Origin: an uncultured Candidatus Rokubacteria bacterium
Lineage (GTDB): Bacteria; Methylomirabilota; Methylomirabilia; Rokubacteriales; CSP1-6
Direction: 5' to 3'
Assembly: GCA_963789955.1 (NCBI GenBank)
Contig: CAWBMV010000006.1
Span: 160,001 to 224,000, forward strand
DNA: 64,000 bases
Shown: positions 18,243 through 28,585 of the stretch, piece by piece
Position numbering within the stretch: position 1 is the stretch's first letter
Layout of the letters: each line of letters begins with the position of its first letter
Program-made: the position numbers and the translations under genes
Notes under the pieces: model-generated
What the model saw: only the letters and a program-made list of their open reading frames with translations
What the model was told of the DNA's origin: nothing
The model's database searches: none

Positions 18243-19236
18243 GTGGATGAGCTGAGGAAGGACCCGACCCGAGGGCACTGGATCCTCATCCGCCCGAAGG
18301 CCAAGCCCGCCCCGCCGACGGATTGTCCCTACTGCCCGGGTGCGGAGCATCTCGCCGGACCGGAGATCACGGCGTTTCGTCCGGAGGGCTCGATCGCGAA
18401 CAGTCCGGGCTGGAGCGTGCGCGTCGTTCCCGAGCCCGACGCGTATTTCCGGATCGAATGGGAGCTGGTGCGCGAGGGCGTCGGCATGTTCGACATGATC
18501 AATCCGCGCGGCGCCAGCGAGCTCGTCATCGAGTCACCCCGCCACGACGACACCCTCGGCGTCGATGGCTCCCGAGCGCTCGAGGCGGTGCTGTGGATGT
18601 ATCGCGACCGGCTGCTCGACCTGAAGCGCGACGGTCAGATTCGCGACATTCTCGTGTCCCGCCGCCACAAGAAGCCCGGCGTGGCCGGCCATCATCCGTA
18701 CTCGCGAGTCACCGCGATCCCGATCGTCTTCGACGAGACGCGGCGCGAGCTGCGCGAGGCGCGCGAGTACTACCAGTACAAGCGACGCTGCCTCTATTGC
18801 GACATCCTTCGCCAGGAAATCGGCGCCGAGGAGCGCGTGGTGCGTCTGACCCCGGCGTTCGCCGCCGTGGTGCCGTACGCGCCGCGCGTGCCCCTCGAGA
18901 CGTGGATCGTCCCGCGGCAGCACGGGTGCTCGTTCGAAGAGGCCATCAAGCCTGAGAACCTCGGCGACCTCGCCCGCCTCCTGTCCGACTACTTCCGCAC
19001 GCTCGCGCGTGGCTTCGGCGACCCCGGGTACGAGATGGTGCTGCACACCGCGCCCAACCTCCGCTCGCGCATCTTGCAAGGGGACTGGGCCACGATCCGT
19101 GACGACTATCACTGGCACATCGAGATCATGTCCGGAGCCCGAGCACGCCAATCGCATCGGGGGCATCTTCATCAACGAGACGCGCCCCGAGGTCTCTGCC
19201 GCGGAGCTCCGTCAGGCCTGGACCGATCAGGTCTAA
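18243..19236 (+). CDS. GalT-like (galactose-1-phosphate uridylyltransferase fold) protein with degenerate active site (frameshift near 19130)
   Basis: ELRKDP..G.W, CPYCPG, CLYCD and YHWHIEI match GalT; HPHxQ is replaced by HPYSR. Confidence 0.8.
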
Positions 19237-19412: not shown

Positions 19413-19440
19413 TTGACGCCGGGCTAGCCCGGTGTAGAAT
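19413..19440 (+). promoter_or_regulatory. sigma70 promoter of the isc operon
   Basis: TTGACG-16 nt-TAGAAT; the spacer contains the palindrome CCGGGCTAGCCCGG. Confidence 0.65.
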
Positions 19441-19526: not shown

Positions 19527-19955
19527 ATGCTCCGCTTTACGAAGCGCGCCGACTACGGGCTGATGGCGATCCACTACATCGCCACGCACGATGGCCTCGG
19601 AGCCGTCAGCACCAAGCGGATCGCCGAGGAGTTCGGGATTCCGCCCGAGCTGCTCGCGAAGATCCTGCAGCGCCTCGCCAAGCGTAGGCTGATCGTCAGC
19701 CAGAACGGGCCGAAGGGCGGATACGTGCTGACGCGGCACCCCGGCGACATCACGGTCGGCGAGGTGGTCCGCGCCCTCGAGGGGCCGATCAGCATCGTGA
19801 GCTGTCTGGAGGGCCCAGGAGTGCCCGCAGGAGACGCGCTGCAATCTCAGCGGCCCGTACAGAAGCTGCAGACGGCGATCAGCCAGCTGCTCGACAACAT
19901 GAGCCTGGCCGAGCTGAGCAACCAGGACGTTCCCGAGGTTCTGTCGATCAAGTGA
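19527..19955 (+). CDS. iscR: Rrf2-family regulator, IscR-like
   Basis: TKRADYGL and GPKGGYVL motifs; first gene of the isc operon; two further Cys (ECPQETRC) lie in a shifted frame near 19815-19850. Confidence 0.82.
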
Positions 19956-19992: not shown

Positions 19993-21218
19993 ATGCTGAA
20001 GTTCCCGATTTTCATGGACTCGCAGTCGACGACGCCCGTGGACCCGCGGGTCGTCGAGGCGATGCTCCCTTACTTCACCGAGAAGTTCGGACACCCGGCC
20101 AGCCGCAATCATTCGTTCGGCTGGGAGGCCGAGAACGCGGTCGATCGTGCCCGCGAGCAGATCGGCAAGATCATCGGCGCCCGGGATCCCAAGGAAGTGA
20201 TCTTCACGTCCGGCGGAACCGAGTCGATCAATCTCGCGCTCAAGGGCGTCGCCGAGATGTACCGGGAGAAGGGCAACCACATCGTCACCACGGCGATCGA
20301 GCAGCGGGCCAGCCTGGACGTCTGCAAGCGTCTGGAGCGCCAGGGCTTCGAGGTGACGTACGTGCCGGTGCGACCCGACGGCCTCGTCGAGCGTCGACGC
20401 GATCCGCCAGGCGCTCACCGACAAGACGATCCTGATCTCGGTGATGTATCGCGAACAACGAGATCGGCACGATCCAGGACATGGCCGCGATCGGCAAGCT
20501 CGCCAAGGAGAAGGGGATCATCTTCCACGCCGACGCGACCCAGGCGGTCGGCAAGATTCCGGTGAACGTCGAAGCGATGGGCATCGATCTGCTCTCGTGC
20601 ACCGCGCACCTGATCTACGGCCCCAAGGGCGTGGGCGCGCTGTACGTCCGGCGCAAGGCGCCGCGGGTGCGCATCGCGCCGCTGATCGACGGCGGCGGGC
20701 ACGAGCGGGGCATGCGTTCGGGAACGCTTCCGGTGCCGCTCATCGTGGGTTTCGGCCGCGCGGCCGAGATCTGCGGCGAGGTGATGGCCGAGGAGGGCGC
20801 GCACCTCGCGAAGCTTCGCGACCGGCTCCAGGACATGATCCTCTCGAACGTCGACGAGGCGTATCCTGAACGGCCACCCGGAGCGGCGGCTGCCGCACAA
20901 CCTGAACATCTCGTTCGCGTACGTCGAGGGCGAGTCGGTGCTGATGGGGCTCAACAAGGAGACGCGCCTTGTCCTCGGGCTCGGCCTGCACCTCGTCGAC
21001 GCTCGAGCCGTCGTACGTGATCGGCGCGCTCGGCGCGAGCGCCGAGCTGGCCCACTCGTCGATCCGCTTCAGCCTGCACCGGTTCAACGACCGAAGAGGA
21101 AGTCGAGTACGTCGGCGCGCGGACGATCGAGGTGGTCAAGCGGCTGCGCGAGATGTCGCCGCTCTACGAGCTGGCCAAGGAAGGCGTTGATCTGAAAAGC
21201 ATTCAGTTGGAAGGCTGA
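19993..21218 (+). CDS. iscS: IscS-type cysteine desulfurase homolog lacking the PLP lysine (several frameshifts)
   Basis: [46 protein letters not shown] and LREMSPLYE present; AH-L-IYGPKG instead of AH-K-IYGPKG. Confidence 0.88.
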
Positions 21219-21236
21219 CTAAGGGGGGCTTCGACC

Positions 21237-21647
21237 ATGGCGTATAGCGATAAGGTTGTCGACCACTACAACAACCCACGGAACGTCGGGTCCTTCACGA
21301 AGGACACTCCGGGAGTGGGTACGGGGCTCGTCGGCGCGCCGGAGTGCGGCGACGTCATGAAGCTCCAGATCAAGGTCAACCTCGACACGGGCGTCATCGA
21401 GGACGCGAAGTTCAAGACGTTCGGGTGCGGCAGCGCCATCGCGTCGTCGAGCCTGGCCACCGAGTGGCTGAAGGGCAAGACGGTCGACGAGGCCGCCAAG
21501 ATCAAGAACACCGACATCGTCAACGAGCTGAAGCTGCCGCCGGTGAAGATCCACTGCTCGGTGCTGGCCGAGGACGCGATCAAGGCGGCCCTGGCCGACT
21601 ACCGGGAGAAGAGCGCATCGGCGGACACTTCGGCGTCGTCGAAATAG
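21237..21647 (+). CDS. iscU: Fe-S scaffold IscU
   Basis: MAYSDKVVDHYNNPRNVG, APECGD, FGCGSA and LPPVKIHC. Confidence 0.96.
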   Translation: MAYSDKVVDHYNNPRNVGSFTKDTPGVGTGLVGAPECGDVMKLQIKVNLDTGVIEDAKFKTFGCGSAIASSSLATEWLKGKTVDEAAKIKNTDIVNELKLPPVKIHCSVLAEDAIKAALADYREKSASADTSASSK

Positions 21648-21669
21648 GTGAGCGGGAGGAACACAACGC

Positions 21670-21998
21670 ATGGCGGTCGCACTGTCGGAAGCAGCGGCGA
21701 AGCAGGTGAAGGAGCTCAAGCAGGCGCAGAACCTGCCGGAGACCGTCTTCCTGCGCATGGGTGTCAAGGGGGGCGGGTGCTCGGGGATGTCGTACACCCT
21801 CGAGTTCGACACCGAGATCGGTCCCCACGACAAGTCTTCGAGATCGACGGCATCAAGGTCGTGGTCGACAAGAAGAGCTACCTGTACCTGAACGGCACAA
21901 CGCTCGACTACGTCCAGCAGGGGCTGACGGGTGGCTTCACCTTCGTCAACCCCAAGGCGAAGTCGAGCTGTGGATGCGGCACGTCGTTCTCGGCGTAG
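21670..21998 (+). CDS. iscA: A-type Fe-S carrier IscA (frameshift near 21833)
   Basis: GGGCSGMSY and SCGCGTSF. Confidence 0.92.
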
Positions 21999-22017
21999 CC
22001 GGGGCCGGAACCACAAG

Positions 22018-22050
22018 GAACGGGCCCGGCGGAGGGCCCGTTCGCATTTT
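22018..22050 (+). terminator. Hairpin between iscA and hscB (terminator or mRNA stabiliser)
   Basis: GAACGGGCCC-6 nt-GGGCCCGTTC followed by gcatttt. Confidence 0.55.
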
Positions 22051-22075
22051 GGGCAGGGGCGTGAAGGGGAGGGCT

Positions 22076-22656
22076 GTGGATCACTTCGAGGTCTTCGGGT
22101 TGCCGCGCCGACTCGGCATCGACACCGCCGAGCTGCAGCGAAAGTTCTACGAGCTCTCGCGCCGCGGCCATCCTGACTTCCACCAGGGCGAGACACGCCG
22201 AGCGCCAGGCGGAAATCCTCGAGGCCTCCGCGCGCCTCAACGCCGCGTACCGGGCACTGCGCGATCCGATCGCCCGTGTCGAGTACCTGGTCCGCCTCGA
22301 AGAAGGGCGCAAGACGCGCGAAGGCGCCACGGTGAAGCCGAAGGCACCGCCCGAGCTGCTCGCAGAGATGTTCGAGATCCAGGAGAGCGCTCCAGGAGGC
22401 CAAGTCCGCCGGCAGCGGCTGGACGACGCCGACGCGCAGCAGACGCTCGTCGCCCAGCGCGACCGGCTCCGGGCGCGCTACGAGCAGGAAGAGGCTCGGC
22501 TGCGTGGGCCGCTCAGCCAGGCGTGGGACGCGGCCGCGGCCGCTGAACGCGCGGCGGCGCTCAACGCCTTCAAAGACGTCGCTGGCGGACGCGGGCCTAT
22601 CTGCGGACCGTGATCGACGACATCGACGAAGCGCTCGGAGACATCGCAGGAGACCC

Positions 22657-22679
<23 letters not shown>
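22076..22679 (+). CDS. hscB: Co-chaperone HscB (frameshifted; end approximate)
   Basis: [11 protein letters not shown]-domain [21 protein letters not shown] and LLAEMFE. Confidence 0.88.
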
Positions 22680-24493
<1,814 letters not shown>

Positions 24494-24494
<1 letters not shown>

Positions 24495-24817
24495 TGGCGG
24501 TCCACAAGGTGACGTTCCTGCCGCTCAACGTGACCGTCGAGGTCGACGACGAGAAGTACCCGCTCGCCGACCACGGCAAGCCCGGGTCGCTGCTGGACAT
24601 CGCGCTGGCCAACGACATCCATCTCGAGCACAACTGCGGCGGAAGCTGTGCCTGCACGACCTGCCATGTGATCGTGAGGGAGGGCGAGGAGAACCTCTCG
24701 GACATGCAGCCGGACGAAGAGGACCGGCTCGACACGGCCGAGGGGCTCACGATCCACTCGCGGCTGGGCTGTCAGGCGGTCGTGCGCGGCAACGTCGTCG
24801 TGGAGATCCCCAAGTGA
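24494..24817 (+). CDS. fdx: ISC-type [2Fe-2S] ferredoxin
   Basis: [13 protein letters not shown] and SRLGCQ. Confidence 0.92.
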
Positions 24818-25017
24818 TCAAGTGGCGGGACTACGAGGACATCGCGATCGCGCTCAGCGAGGGCCATCCGGATCTCGATCCGCTGACGGTCCGGTTCACC
24901 GATCTCCACCGCTGGGTGACCGAGCTTCCCGGCTTCACCGACGACCCGAAGGGGTCCAACGAGAAGATCCTCGAGGCGATCCAGATGGCCTGGCTGGACG
25001 AATACCGGAACCGATGA
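24814..25017 (+). CDS. iscX: Fe-S assembly protein IscX
   Basis: [13 protein letters not shown]...[14 protein letters not shown]...[12 protein letters not shown]. Confidence 0.93.
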
Positions 25018-25040
25018 CGCGAGTGGTCGCGGGCGGACGC

Positions 25041-25268
25041 CTACCAGGTCACGACCTGGTCGGCCTCGAAGATCAGCTCGAGCAGCTGACCGTACGAGAG
25101 GTCGCCGTCGAGGCGGCGCACCGTCGCGCCCGCCGGCAGACCGGACGCGGCGCCGCCCGGCAGGACGACGACCGTGACGCGATCGCCGCGCCGCGCAGAT
25201 GGTGATCGACCACGGTCCACGGCGAGCGTGGTGTCCGAACCCTTGACCAGATGGAGCACCGCGGCCAT
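25041..25268 (-). CDS. DsrH/TusB-like small protein
   Basis: VLHLVK N-terminus and LSYGQLLELIFEADQVVTW C-terminus; third gene of the DsrE-like trio. Confidence 0.7.
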   Translation of the reverse strand: MAAVLHLVKGSDTTLAVDRGRSPSARRGDRVTVVVLPGGAASGLPAGATVRRLDGDLSYGQLLELIFEADQVVTW

Positions 25269-25624
25269 CAGAACACCAGGAACCGGCGGCCGCGCTGGAC
25301 GAGGGCGGCGATCTCGTCGCGGGTCACCGGAATGACGGCGTGGCCGTCGGCGTTCCAGCTCGCGTCGGTCGGCACGGCGTCCTTCTCGACGTGGAACGGC
25401 ACGCCGAGCGATTTGAGGTTCGCCCGGAACTTCGCGATCTCGTCGCCGTCGACGAGCTCGTCGGTGTCCTCGTCGAGCAGGTGGACGCCGGCGCCCAGCA
25501 GCACGAAGGTGACGTCGTTCTCGCCCGCGACGACGCCGAGGCCGATGCGCATCGCCTCGTTCGCGCGATGGGACACGCGCGGGTCCGTCGAGATGAGGAC
25601 GATGACCGGCGGGCTGGCGATCAC
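25268..25624 (-). CDS. DsrF/TusC-like (DsrE family) protein
   Basis: VLISTDPRVSHRANEAMRIGLG followed by VTFVLLGAGV; ends RFLVF; no Cys. Confidence 0.72.
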   Translation of the reverse strand: MIASPPVIVLISTDPRVSHRANEAMRIGLGVVAGENDVTFVLLGAGVHLLDEDTDELVDGDEIAKFRANLKSLGVPFHVEKDAVPTDASWNADGHAVIPVTRDEIAALVQRGRRFLVF

Positions 25625-25629
25625 GGAGA

Positions 25630-25954
25630 TCAGTTGAGCGCGATGAACCGGTCGGTGGCGTTGATCAGGTCGGTCAGGACGACGAGGCCGCAGTAGGTCA
25701 CGCGTGTCGGCGTCGCGCAGAGGGATACGACGCTTCTGGCAGCCGTAGGCGCACACGAACAGCTTGGCGCCGCGCTCCGGCAGGGCGCGAACGCGCGGAT
25801 CGTCCAGCGCGGTGACTCCGTCGTCGATGAGGTACAGGTAGAGATCCGCGCCGCGCTCGAGCGCCGCGCTCGAGAGACCGACGGCCGTCTCGAGGTTCGG
25901 ATGATCGCGCCCCGTGGACAGCAGAACGCCGAGCTTCTTCTTCGCGAGGTCCAT
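25630..25954 (-). CDS. DsrE/TusD-like sulfur relay protein (frameshift near 25705)
   Basis: LYLYLIDDGV, LFVCAYGCQKR and GLVVLTDLINATDRFIALN. Confidence 0.8.
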
Positions 25955-25996
25955 CGCGGATCGAGCGTAGCATCGTAAAAAATGGAGAGCAAGCCG

Positions 25997-27154
25997 ATGA
26001 GCCGTCGAGTGTACCTGGATTACAACGCGTCGACCCCCGTCCATCCGGAAGTGCTCGCCGAGATGCTGCCGTACTTCGCGGACGTCTACGGCAATCCGTC
26101 GAGCATCCACGGGTTCGGGCGTGAGGCGCGCGAAGGCATGGACCTGGCGCGCGAGCGGGTCGCGAAGTTCCTGAAGGTGGCGAGCCAGGAGATCGTCTTC
26201 ACCTCCGGCGGGACCGAGTCGGACAATTTCGCGGTGAAGGGGCTCGCGCTCGCCAAGGGCAGGGGCCACCTCATCACCTCGCAGGTCGAGCACCACGCGG
26301 TGCTCCGCGCGTGCCGGGCGCTCGAGGCCCAGGGCTTCGGCCTGACCTGCCTCGGCGTCGACGAGCACGGCATGGTCGACCCCGACGAGGTGCGGCGCGC
26401 GATTCGCCCGGACACCCTGGCGATCAGCATCATGCACGCCAACAGCGAGGTCGGCACGCTCCAGCCGATCGAGGCGATCGGCCGTATCGCGCGCGAGCAC
26501 GGCGTGCCGTTCCATGTCGACGCGGTGCAGACCTTCGGCAAGCTGCCGATCGACCTCGACCTGCTCGGCATCGACATGCTGTCGTTCTCGGCCCACAAGA
26601 TCTACGGGCCGAAGGGCGCGGCCGGGCTCTACATCCGCAAGGGCACCAAGATGGTCGCGGTCCAGCACGGCGGCGAGCACGAGCGGCGCCGGCGCGCGGG
26701 CACCGAGAACGTGGCGGGCATCGTCGGGCTCGGCAAGGCGGTGGAAGTGCGGGCCCGCGACATGGCCGCGGAGGCCGAGCGGCTGACGGGCCTCCGCGAT
26801 CGGCTCTGGAACGGGATTCGCGAGCGCGTGCCCGACGTGAAGCTGTCCGGCCACCCGACCAAGCGGCTCCCGGGTACCGCGAGCCTGCTCTTCCGCCACG
26901 TCGAGTCCGAGTCGATCGTGCTCGGCCTCGACCTGAAGGGGATCGGCGTCTCGGCCGGCTCGGCGTGCACCTCCGGCAACGTCGAACCGTCGCACGTCCT
27001 GGTCGCGATGGGCGTCGCGGTCGACTGGGCCATGGGCGCAGTCCGATGCTCGCTCGGACGCTCGACCAGCGCCGACGACATCGACTACGTCGTCGCGTGC
27101 GTCGAGCCGCTCGTCAAGAAGCTCCGGCAGGCGATGCCGGTCGGCGCGGCATGA
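25997..27154 (+). CDS. nifS: Cysteine desulfurase (NifS/IscS group I), intact
   Basis: [30 protein letters not shown] and SAGSACTSG all canonical. Confidence 0.92.
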
Positions 27155-27185
27155 GCGGTCGCCCCCGGCCGGAGCGAGGCTGACG

Positions 27186-27848
27186 GTGTTCGCGGAGCTC
27201 CGGCGCGACATCCAGGCGGTGCGTGATCGGGACCCCGCCGCGCGCTCCACGCTCGAGGTGCTGCTCTGCTATCCGGGTGTCCACGCGCTCGCGTGCCATC
27301 GGTTCGCGCACGCGATCTGGCGGCGCGGCTGGAAGATCCCCGCGCGCTTCCTGTCTCACATCGCCCGGTTCTTCACCGGCATCGAGATCCATCCCGCGGC
27401 CAAGCTCGGGCCCGGCCTCTTCATCGACCACGGCATGGGCGTCGTCATCGGCGAGACCGCCGAGGTCGGGGAGAACGTCACCCTGCTCCAGGGCGTGACG
27501 CTCGGCGGCACGAGCCTCAAGCGGGAGAAGCGCCATCCGACCCTCGGCGACAACGTCGTCGTCGGCGCCGGCGCCAAGATCATCGGCGCGTTCAAGATCG
27601 GGGACGGCAGCCGCATCGGCGCCGGCTCGGTCGTCGTCCGCGAGGTGCCGACGAACTCCGTTGTCGTGGGCGTTCCGGGCCGGGTAACATATCGGGACGG
27701 TCAGCGGGTGGCCGGCGGGATCGATCTGGATCAGACCGATCTGCCGGACCCCGTGAGCAAGGCCATCGAGCAGCTCGTCGAGCGGATTCGAGCTCTCGAG
27801 GACGAGCTCGAGACGGTGAAAAAGAAAGTCGAGGAGGAACACGCGTGA
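27186..27848 (+). CDS. cysE: Serine O-acetyltransferase
   Basis: [29 protein letters not shown] and KRHPTLG. Confidence 0.95.
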
Positions 27849-28024
27849 ACCCCAAGGACATGCTGAGCCTCAAGGAAGCGTCGACGTATCTCGGCATGGA
27901 TGAGCGCGCGCTCGCGTCGCTCGCCACCGAGCGGCGCATCCCGTCGTTGCAGCTCGACGGCGCCTGGATGTTCTCCAAGAAGTCGATCGACAAGTGGCGG
28001 GGTCAGCAGACGCCACGCCCGTGA
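27845..28024 (+). CDS. Small excisionase-like helix-turn-helix protein
   Basis: [12 protein letters not shown]...[15 protein letters not shown] start overlaps the cysE stop. Confidence 0.75.
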
Positions 28025-28585
28025 TCTCGCGCGACGAGGCCTGGTCCGTCCTCACCGAGTTCACCAAGAGCGATAGTCTCCGCAAGCACGCCCGCGCCGT
28101 CGAAGCCTCGATGCGCGCCTACGCCGGCCGTTACGGCGAGGACCCGGACGCGTGGGGCGTGACCGGCATGCTCCACGACTTCGACTACGAGATGCACCCG
28201 CGCGCGCCGCATCACCCCATCAAGGGCGCCGAGATCTTGATATCGCGCGGCGTGTCCGAGCCGATCGTGCACGCGATCCTGGCCCACGCCGACTATTCCG
28301 GCGTGCCGCGCGTCTCGCGCCTCGACAAGGCTCTCTACGCCTGCGACGAGCTCTCCGGCTTCGTGCACGCGGTGCGCCCTGGTCCGGCCCGGCCGGGTGA
28401 TCACCGGGCTCGAGCCGCCTTCGGTCAAGAAGAAGCTCAAGGACAAGGCGTTCGCCCGCACCGTGAACCGCGACGACGTCTACCGCGGCGCGACCGAGCT
28501 CGGCGTCGATCTCGACGCCCACATCGCCTTCGTCATCGCCGCCCTCACCGAAGTCGCCCCCGAAATCGGCCTCGCCCGCACCTGA
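28021..28585 (+). CDS. HD/HDIG-domain hydrolase (frameshift near 28372)
   Basis: LRKHARAVEA, GMLHDFDYE, ACDELSG and KDKAFARTVNR. Confidence 0.85.

Follow-up and report, generated by a model that had tools for sequence, protein, structure and literature searches.

How could a complete ISC (iron-sulfur cluster) operon work with an IscS protein that lacks the catalytic residues of a cysteine desulfurase? Catalysis by IscS is regarded as the indispensable start of this pathway, and the full ISC machine is otherwise known from Escherichia coli and mitochondria. The question is raised by a 64,000-nucleotide stretch of DNA from an uncultured Candidatus Rokubacteria bacterium (contig CAWBMV010000006.1, order Rokubacteriales), hereafter called the window, whose + strand carries iscR-iscS-iscU-iscA-hscB-hscA-fdx-iscX, followed by three small genes on the − strand (hereafter called the trio), a nifS-like gene and cysE. 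Its iscS gene, denoted iscS* (19993-21222, +), codes for an ISC-type cysteine desulfurase homologue without the catalytic Lys and His. The reading that we favour, with a probability of about 0.48, is that IscS* would be a non-catalytic platform whose Cys328 is loaded with persulfide from outside and passes it on to IscU.

Active-site changes and sequence quality

Residues were numbered by aligning the intact orthologue of a related genome (G013) with E. coli IscS (PDB 1P3W). As stated in a preliminary description of the locus, Gln replaces His104 (CAG, 20302-20304, +) and Leu replaces Lys206 (CTG, 20610-20612, +), both in frame. The alignment revealed a third change, from Asp79 to Ile (ATC, 20227-20229, +). 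Cys328 in the persulfide loop (20987-20989, +), Arg354, Thr243, Asp180, Gln183 and His205 are unchanged in the window. The retention of the persulfide loop and of the IscU-binding C-terminus, which had also been put forward, is borne out in the window; of the 85 orthologues described below, all have Cys328 and nearly all keep the tail.

In the assembly iscS* is split by six probable indels. The extra bases at 20393, 20449, 20864/5, 20963, 21086 and 21205 are missing from the Illumina contigs of four public runs, and similar single-base indels are found in most neighbouring genes; the iscS* indels are thus most likely assembly errors. The two codons, for which a read check had been proposed, are not directly confirmed by the reads. 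We consider the substitutions real, since relatives are changed at both sites (85/85 orthologues of families f1 and f5). In addition, Leu occupies position 206 in 117 of 120 metagenomic homologues, the other three not being parsed by the search pattern; the runs that hold homologues come from soil, rhizosphere and sediment. The argument that going from AAG to CTG requires two substitutions proved weaker than claimed, as ATG, one step away from AAG, is found in 21 of the 85 orthologues. These Met206 orthologues are mostly from early-branching lineages, a distribution that would fit a path from Lys through Met to Leu.

Distribution and origins of the altered IscS

We found an iscS orthologue (E<1e-140) in 131 of the 145 genomes of the order and took 100 of these loci, together with 20 loci from other orders of the class; close homologues carry the source name Ca. 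Rokuibacteriota. In families f1 and f5, position 206 is Leu in 64 and Met in 21 of the 85 orthologues and Lys in none, and Gln104 and Ile79 are both invariant (85/85). The conservation in relatives that the preliminary description had proposed to look for thus holds throughout both families. By contrast, the seven orthologues of family f3 and of the part of f4 outside genus g14 are all canonical, including at Asp79. In g14 Lys206 is retained, and H104Q is combined with Q183E (8/8). All 20 orthologues from other orders have Lys206 and His104. According to PMC9978102, the H104Q, K206A and Q183E variants of E. coli IscS have no desulfurase activity, and 93 of the 100 orthologues of the order therefore carry changes expected to inactivate the enzyme.

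A tree of 11 neighbouring genes rejects the grouping of g14 with f1 (approximately unbiased test, p-AU 3e-6), which indicates that the loss of catalytic residues is likely to have arisen twice in Rokubacteriales, in f1+f5 and in g14. When iscS is analysed by itself, without the trait columns, the possibility that H104Q arose only once in f1+f5 and g14 is not rejected (p-AU 0.445). Rokubacteriales IscS proteins cluster with those of Nitrospirota (support 99), not with IscS of other Methylomirabilia orders. This grouping parallels the distribution of the DsrE trio and fits shared ancestry or transfer alike.

Selection and probable dependence on IscU

iscS* is under purifying selection. Its dN/dS (non-synonymous to synonymous rate ratio; median pairwise value over 63 f1+f5 genomes, the pairs not being independent) is 0.158, compared with 0.230 for nifS, 0.244 for hscA, 0.140 for iscU and 0.164 for fdx. 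Relaxed selection, which the preliminary description named as an outcome that would speak against it, is thus not what we found, the value for iscS* lying below that of nifS. Likewise, the ratio of iscS to hscA divergence is 0.71 for iscS* vs 0.69 in five canonical genomes.

The interaction surfaces are conserved as well. Surface arginines 220, 223, 225 and 237, which we take to be the Fdx/IscX-binding patch, are found in 85/85 orthologues, as are the IscU-contact residues Glu309, Ser312, Arg379 and Glu388; these contacts, and the need of the tail for IscU binding in E. coli, are described in PMC2854127. The three Cys residues of IscU are present in 97/97 sequences, and Fdx has its four ligand Cys residues in 88/88 and a fifth Cys in 86/88. 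SufBD is encoded in 32 of the 145 genomes (20 of the 77 high-quality ones) and was not found in the genome of the window (G000, 87% complete). IscU being in most cases the only three-Cys scaffold seen, the iscS*-bearing ISC system probably works.

Two genomes, G080 and G130, are informative in this respect. They sit in separate clades on starred branches of the 11-neighbouring-gene tree, canonical IscU was found in neither, and both have SufBD. Their iscS* genes are the two fastest of the 85, with excess iscS changes over their sister genomes (53-65:16-21 in G080 and 51-57:8-10 in G130), and keep 9 and 10, respectively, of the 23 tail residues (median 22). fdx is accelerated in both, and they are the only two genomes to have lost the fifth Cys of Fdx (2/88); Cys328 is still present. 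The decay of the tail and of fdx where IscU was not found ties IscS* to the IscU machine, and together with the conserved contact residues and tail it supports the earlier suggestion that IscS is kept as an IscU partner.

Catalysis, cofactor pocket and fold

By analogy with the E. coli variants, IscS* is predicted to have no desulfurase activity. The preliminary description fares well in calling it non-catalytic, insofar as it is almost certainly not a canonical desulfurase, and less well in calling it 'PLP-less' (without pyridoxal 5'-phosphate). The rest of the pocket is invariant or nearly so (Thr76, Asn155, Asp180, His205, Thr243 and Arg354 in 85/85 f1+f5 orthologues, Gln183 in 84/85), E. 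coli K206A is reported in PMC9978102 to retain some PLP and to form cysteine adducts, and the IscS of Archaeoglobus fulgidus binds pyridoxamine 5'-phosphate (PMP) according to PMC8918507. The pocket of IscS* may thus hold PLP or PMP non-covalently. Its conservation may also be structural, given that 211 of the 407 columns of the IscS alignment are near-invariant anyway. Cys328 is a Cys in all 120 aligned IscS sequences.

The G013 orthologue passes the NF010611 profile (604.6 > 548 bits) and scores below the cut-off of TIGR02006 (593.5 vs 643.2). The AlphaFold2 model of IscS* (pLDDT 88) has the IscS/Nfs1 fold, with Z scores of 56-58 to IscS and NFS1 and identities of 51-56% to E. coli IscS and human NFS1 and of 46-48% to A. 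fulgidus IscS.

The DsrE trio, NifS and cysE

The trio consists of three − strand genes, for a DsrE/TusD-like protein (25630-25954; PF02635; indel near 25702), a DsrF/TusC-like member of the DsrE/F family (25268-25624; PF02635 above cut-off; no conserved Cys) and a protein that is DsrH/TusB-like by position and size only (25041-25268; no conserved Cys), the last of which is conserved in Rokubacteriales. The first protein has Cys68 (25751-25753) and Cys72 (25739-25741) in 83/83 sequences, the former at a strand-helix junction and a candidate counterpart of the active Cys78 of DsrE, and its model matches DsrE (2HY5_A, Z 15.0, root-mean-square deviation 1.9, 102 residues aligned). Neither the first nor the third protein gave a significant match in profile searches of the PDB, and the third had no Pfam hit either. 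Head-to-head with the trio, at a median start-to-start distance of 42 bp in 83 loci, lies the gene for a NifS-like type I cysteine desulfurase whose catalytic residues are all in place (25997-27154, +), followed by cysE, coding for a serine acetyltransferase (27186-27848, +; PF06426 and PF00132). As reported before, this paralogue has the canonical motifs (His, Lys and Cys are seen) and no IscS tail. Its motifs are intact in 80/80 loci, one frameshifted Cys column aside, so that its proposed role as sulfur donor is plausible.

dsrE-like genes and nifS are present in all 80 loci of the order that reach cysE, namely 67 of f1+f5, eight of g14 and five with canonical IscS. The co-occurrence of this block with the altered IscS, once expected to be specific, is not, since the five canonical-IscS relatives whose loci reach cysE all have the block, and the trio also accompanies canonical IscS in Nitrospirota. 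A specific link between the trio and the loss of catalysis is not supported on these grounds (5/5 relatives in the order; 17/30 Nitrospirota IscS). The block thus predates the loss of catalysis, and its prior existence may have allowed it.

DsrC/TusE, the usual acceptor, is encoded in 5 of the 145 genomes and was not found in that of the window (87% complete); the trio therefore generally occurs without it. Transfer between TusA and DsrE was reported to be bidirectional in vitro for the DsrEFH of cable bacteria (PMC13293266). An IscU-like gene follows nifS in most relatives; its product has two Cys residues, the third being present in only 2/71. It lies between nifS and cysE, for instance in locus L045, and does not accompany nifS in the window or in G013, G014, G006 and G012; no such gene was found in the window or elsewhere in its genome. 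Instead of being a scaffold, the two-Cys protein may carry sulfur.

Other desulfurase and carrier genes

The genome of the window codes for a second Lys-less desulfurase homologue, on contig C37 (452946-454154; 1489-2697, −, in locus L002), with Asp at the Lys position like the A. fulgidus protein. This paralogue has kept the loop Cys and lacks the equivalents of His205, Gln183 and Arg354, and its gene directly follows tusA (C37:454123-454332). Genes of this type (E<1e-110) occur in 76 of 82 genomes of the order and in none of 38 from other orders, and 18 or more of 30 loci show a tusA motif. The same contig holds, downstream of an XdhC-like gene, a SufU-like gene followed by a SufS-like gene whose product has the Lys (C37:58817-60397, −), and this orphan pair is a further possible donor. 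Separately, a tusA-dsrE pair is located on contig C22 (191056-191925, −), upstream of a TusA-domain fusion that resembles cobalamin-independent methionine synthase.

Lys-less IscS in Leptospirillum and beyond

A motif scan of GTDB genomes identified, among the matches listed (at least 120), Lys-less type I desulfurases in Verrucomicrobiota, Aquificota, Thermodesulfobacteriota, Nitrospirota, archaea and Rokubacteria. One of them, found in a Leptospirillum record, is encoded in an rrf2-iscS-iscU-iscA-hscB operon. IscS of this type is present in 49 of 121 Nitrospirota genomes; the best 30 of these 49 comprise 13 K206L proteins, closest to the Leptospirillum query, and 17 canonical ones. All 13 combine K206L with Ile or Gly at position 104, D180N and Q183Y, and keep Cys328, Arg354 and the tail. 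A common origin of the Leptospirillum and Rokubacteriales losses is rejected (p-AU 0.007, in a quick tree with long branches), so that K206L appears to have arisen independently in Leptospirillum, in a lineage that bears the trio.

The same DsrE protein (E<1e-20) is encoded in 48 of the 49 Nitrospirota genomes with this IscS and in none of the 72 others; its gene is not adjacent to isc in the loci inspected. In four genomes of other Methylomirabilia orders, the same search gave two weak matches and two misses. tusA lies directly upstream of dsrE in Leptospirillum genomes G188 and G202. SufBD was found in none of five Leptospirillum genomes, three of which code for a Lys-bearing desulfurase elsewhere. 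The isc operon of Leptospirillum strain CF-1 is co-transcribed and stress-induced, as described in PMC9628965, the main text of which leaves the active site without comment and contains neither 'lysine' nor 'PLP'.

All five Leptospirillum genomes (L364, L365, L367, L368 and L371) also code for a further, very divergent Lys-less desulfurase homologue that has kept the loop Cys. Lys-less desulfurases of the NifS/MIS type occur in Verrucomicrobiota (with Arg), Aquificota (with Leu) and Hydrothermarchaeota (loci L164-L282); their genetic contexts include tusA-S-iscU in Caldimicrobium and rrf2-S-tusA in a Nitrospirae record, S denoting the desulfurase gene.

Proposed mechanism

That IscS* acts as a non-catalytic platform is very probable. 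It would dock IscU, Fdx and IscX, as suggested by the kept tail and arginines, and its Cys328 would take up persulfide in trans and shuttle the sulfur to IscU. If IscS* is such a platform, persulfide borne by a carrier is slightly favoured as the sulfur source. In Rokubacteriales the sulfur would probably come from the neighbouring intact NifS, with TusA, the DsrE-like protein and perhaps the two-Cys IscU-like protein as carriers. We infer all of these transfer steps, and the carriers and donor are less certain than the platform. The relay would reverse the usual flow from IscS to TusA to DsrE. As happens in the Archaeoglobus complex, Cys328 may in addition bind the cluster transiently. According to PMC13015791, Fdx reduces persulfide in E. 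coli, and rescue by sulfide works without Fdx in an iscS/fdx mutant; the retention of Fdx under strong constraint thus favours sulfane sulfur over free sulfide.

On a more speculative note, one may envisage a sixth mode of Fe-S cluster biogenesis, in which the full ISC machine operates with IscS as sulfur receiver and a TusA/DsrEFH relay reversed into Cys328. The desulfurase would have been switched off three times (f1+f5, g14 and Leptospirillum) in a trio-linked ISC lineage, and Leptospirillum might use non-cysteine sulfur under oxygen. We regard this generalization as tentative and rather unlikely to hold in full.

Several observations weigh against the favoured reading of a platform loaded with persulfide. 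Loci with canonical IscS have the trio and nifS just as often, which suggests that both have some other job, and in most loci (59/67) an IscU-like partner gene of its own follows nifS. Acceleration is confined to G080 for the trio genes and to G130 for nifS, so that the rates do not demonstrate a link of either to IscU. The residue that matches Glu49 of the E. coli TusA interface is not kept. The co-occurrence of DsrE and IscS in Nitrospirota follows kinship and is not independent evidence. As no Lys-bearing desulfurase was found in two of the five Leptospirillum genomes (G188 and G219, both drafts), NifS cannot be the general donor. Desulfurase activity that rises with iscS transcripts was reported in whole extracts of strain CF-1 (PMC9628965), and this counts against a non-catalytic IscS unless another enzyme supplies it. 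Lastly, a gap of 20 N between iscS* and fdx in G080 could hide iscU and hscA; iscR and iscX of that genome are absent where the sequence is continuous, and no gap occurs in G130.

Alternative explanations

The alternative that survives best, although we deem it unlikely, is a role of the Archaeoglobus type, in which IscS* would be purely structural and offer Cys328 to the cluster as a ligand. The sulfur would be inorganic sulfide, or polysulfide that TusA/DsrE capture, and NifS would serve other pathways. A structural, Cys-ligand role has been proposed for A. fulgidus IscS (PMC8918507, PMC7585200), and H2S rescues E. coli without iscS, via IscU, according to PMC13015791. Two genomic observations point the same way, namely the Leptospirillum genomes G188 and G219, without a Lys-bearing desulfurase found and within a set of five in which none has SufBD, and an Aquifex genome (G189) with only a Lys-less desulfurase at E<1e-40. 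However, the two Leptospirillum genomes are drafts, the conserved Fdx with its fifth Cys suits a persulfide route, and an intact NifS is fixed beside the operon in all 80 loci of the order that reach cysE. Moreover, the E. coli rescue described in PMC13015791 is anaerobic, whereas the runs that hold homologues are from soil, rhizosphere and sediment.

It is improbable that IscS* has remained an enzyme or senses a ligand, with non-covalent PLP or PMP and slow or other turnover, or with a regulatory cysteine-PLP adduct. The invariant pocket residues, the adducts formed by E. coli K206A and the activity in CF-1 extracts would be accounted for in this manner. Nevertheless, H104Q and K206A each abolish the activity of E. 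coli IscS and both sites are changed in IscS*, the pocket conservation may be structural, and the Leptospirillum copies have lost Asp180 and Gln183 as well. The extract activity could stem from other enzymes, a Lys-bearing desulfurase being encoded in three of the five Leptospirillum genomes.

Still less probable is a heterodimer in which NifS would contribute the active site, while IscU, Fdx and IscX would dock on IscS*. The two proteins share the same fold, NifS has no IscU tail and is always adjacent, and Thr243, which presumably completes the PLP site of the partner subunit, is invariant. Yet NifS and IscS* fall into separate deep-branching clades, NifS is not faster in G080 where IscS* is, and no partner was found in some Leptospirillum genomes. 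Since each IscU engages one IscS monomer in the IscS-IscU structure (PMC13066941), sulfur passing from the Cys of NifS to IscU would still need to get from one subunit to the other.

An error of sequencing, or the decay of a pseudogene whose function NifS or SUF had taken over, might account for the many indels of the window and the decay in G080 and G130, and is refuted by the open-frame changes shared by 85/85 orthologues and by the dN/dS of 0.158, with SufBD not found in most genomes. SUF as a working replacement was rejected for most genomes on the same count (32/145).

Comparison with known systems

The preliminary description knew of no comparable ISC variant. Lys-less IscS proteins have in fact been described in A. 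fulgidus (PMC8918507) and Methanosarcina acetivorans (PMC7585200), and a bacterial K-to-L paralogue is present in the PDB. Like IscS*, A. fulgidus IscS (PDB 4HVK, 4EB5, 4EB7 and 4R5F) has no Schiff-base Lys, keeps the loop Cys, partners with IscU and was proposed in PMC8918507 to be non-catalytic, and its fold resembles the IscS* model (Z 52). It differs by an Asp in place of the Lys, where IscS* has Leu or Met in addition to H104Q and D79I, and by its setting: the archaeon produces sulfide and has a minimal pair of IscS and IscU, whereas the soil bacteria have the full iscRSUA-hscBA-fdx-iscX operon. In a tree without the A. fulgidus protein, IscS* is placed within the canonical ISC-type IscS proteins, which would point to convergence between Archaeoglobus and Rokubacteriales. 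M. acetivorans IscS1, also without the catalytic Lys, was suggested in PMC7585200 to act like its A. fulgidus homologue; it belongs to a minimal archaeal system with active paralogues.

PDB entry 9WFY ('cysteine desulfurase', in a set with 9WFE, 9WFB, 9WF8, 9WEW, 9WER and 9WEP) has Leu at the Lys position and matches the Lys-less protein of an Aquifex-titled record at E 9e-244, whereas 9WFE keeps the Lys. A bacterial K-to-L paralogue is thus already under structural study; our literature searches found no paper on this series. Unlike IscS*, 9WFY keeps His104, has no ISC tail and falls in another clade.

The Rokubacteriales system shares with E. coli ISC its gene set and order, the IscU ligands, and the tail and surface residues of IscS. 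It differs by the absence of Lys206, His104 and Asp79, by the DsrE trio, NifS and CysE after the operon, and by an Arg or Lys in IscR at the position of the His ligand. As in DsrEFH/TusBCD systems, including DsrEFH type II, the trio consists of three small coupled genes with a DsrE fold and a conserved Cys, but DsrC/TusE is rare here and the third gene has no DsrH match. Methylomirabilota and Rokubacteria are not named in the main text of the DsrEFH type II paper. In comparison with NifS-NifU/MIS pairs, the desulfurase motifs are intact here, and the adjacent U protein lacks the third Cys in 69/71. A 2026 review (PMC13066941) lists sulfide use, in its available text, only for the minimal MIS and SMS systems.

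Lys-less IscS as such is therefore known. A dead IscS in a complete ISC operon was not found described; in searches that covered few subscription journals, no paper turned up that reports a Lys-less IscS from Rokubacteria or Leptospirillum, or from any full isc operon. An abundant soil order appears to keep a complete ISC, usually as its only scaffold system, and automatic annotation continues to label its IscS a cysteine desulfurase; the platform role of IscS would here be separated from its catalytic role. Where the sulfur comes from, a question left open by Archaeoglobus IscS, can be tested here with all partners at hand and with specific candidate donors. The Leptospirillum parallel offers a cultured organism, and the canonical, intermediate (g14) and fully substituted orthologues form a natural series for biochemistry.

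Other features of the locus

The remaining genes of the operon are all on the + strand. A match to a sigma-70-like promoter (19413-19440; 10/12 consensus, one match vs 0.4 expected in shuffles, hence a consensus match only) precedes iscR (19527-19955; Rrf2 family), whose product is 85% identical to IscR of G013 by tblastn, with two compensating indels at 19820 and 19848. In the 98 IscR sequences of the order, the three Cys residues are kept and the putative His-ligand position is occupied by Arg (93) or Lys (5). iscU (21237-21647; PF01592) encodes all three Cys residues, its G013 orthologue scoring above the TIGR01999 cut-off. It is followed by iscA (21670-21998; one indel), hscB (22061-22670; several indels, ends approximate), hscA (22657-24494; several indels, end approximate), fdx for an ISC-type [2Fe-2S] ferredoxin (24494-24817; PF00111) and iscX (24814-25017; PF04384). 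Metatranscriptome contigs of two runs span all 30 bins of the region; as RNA libraries may hold DNA, this is no proof of expression.

Beyond cysE, a small HTH_17 gene and an HD-domain gene (27845-28585, +) are coupled to it and kept in many relatives. Upstream of iscR lies a gene for a GalT-like nucleotidyltransferase (18243-19233, +), in which the H-x-H motif reads H-P-Y upon alignment to 1Z84. This H-P-Y motif occurs in every variant listed, and the protein is possibly a pseudo-enzyme or one with a Tyr nucleophile.

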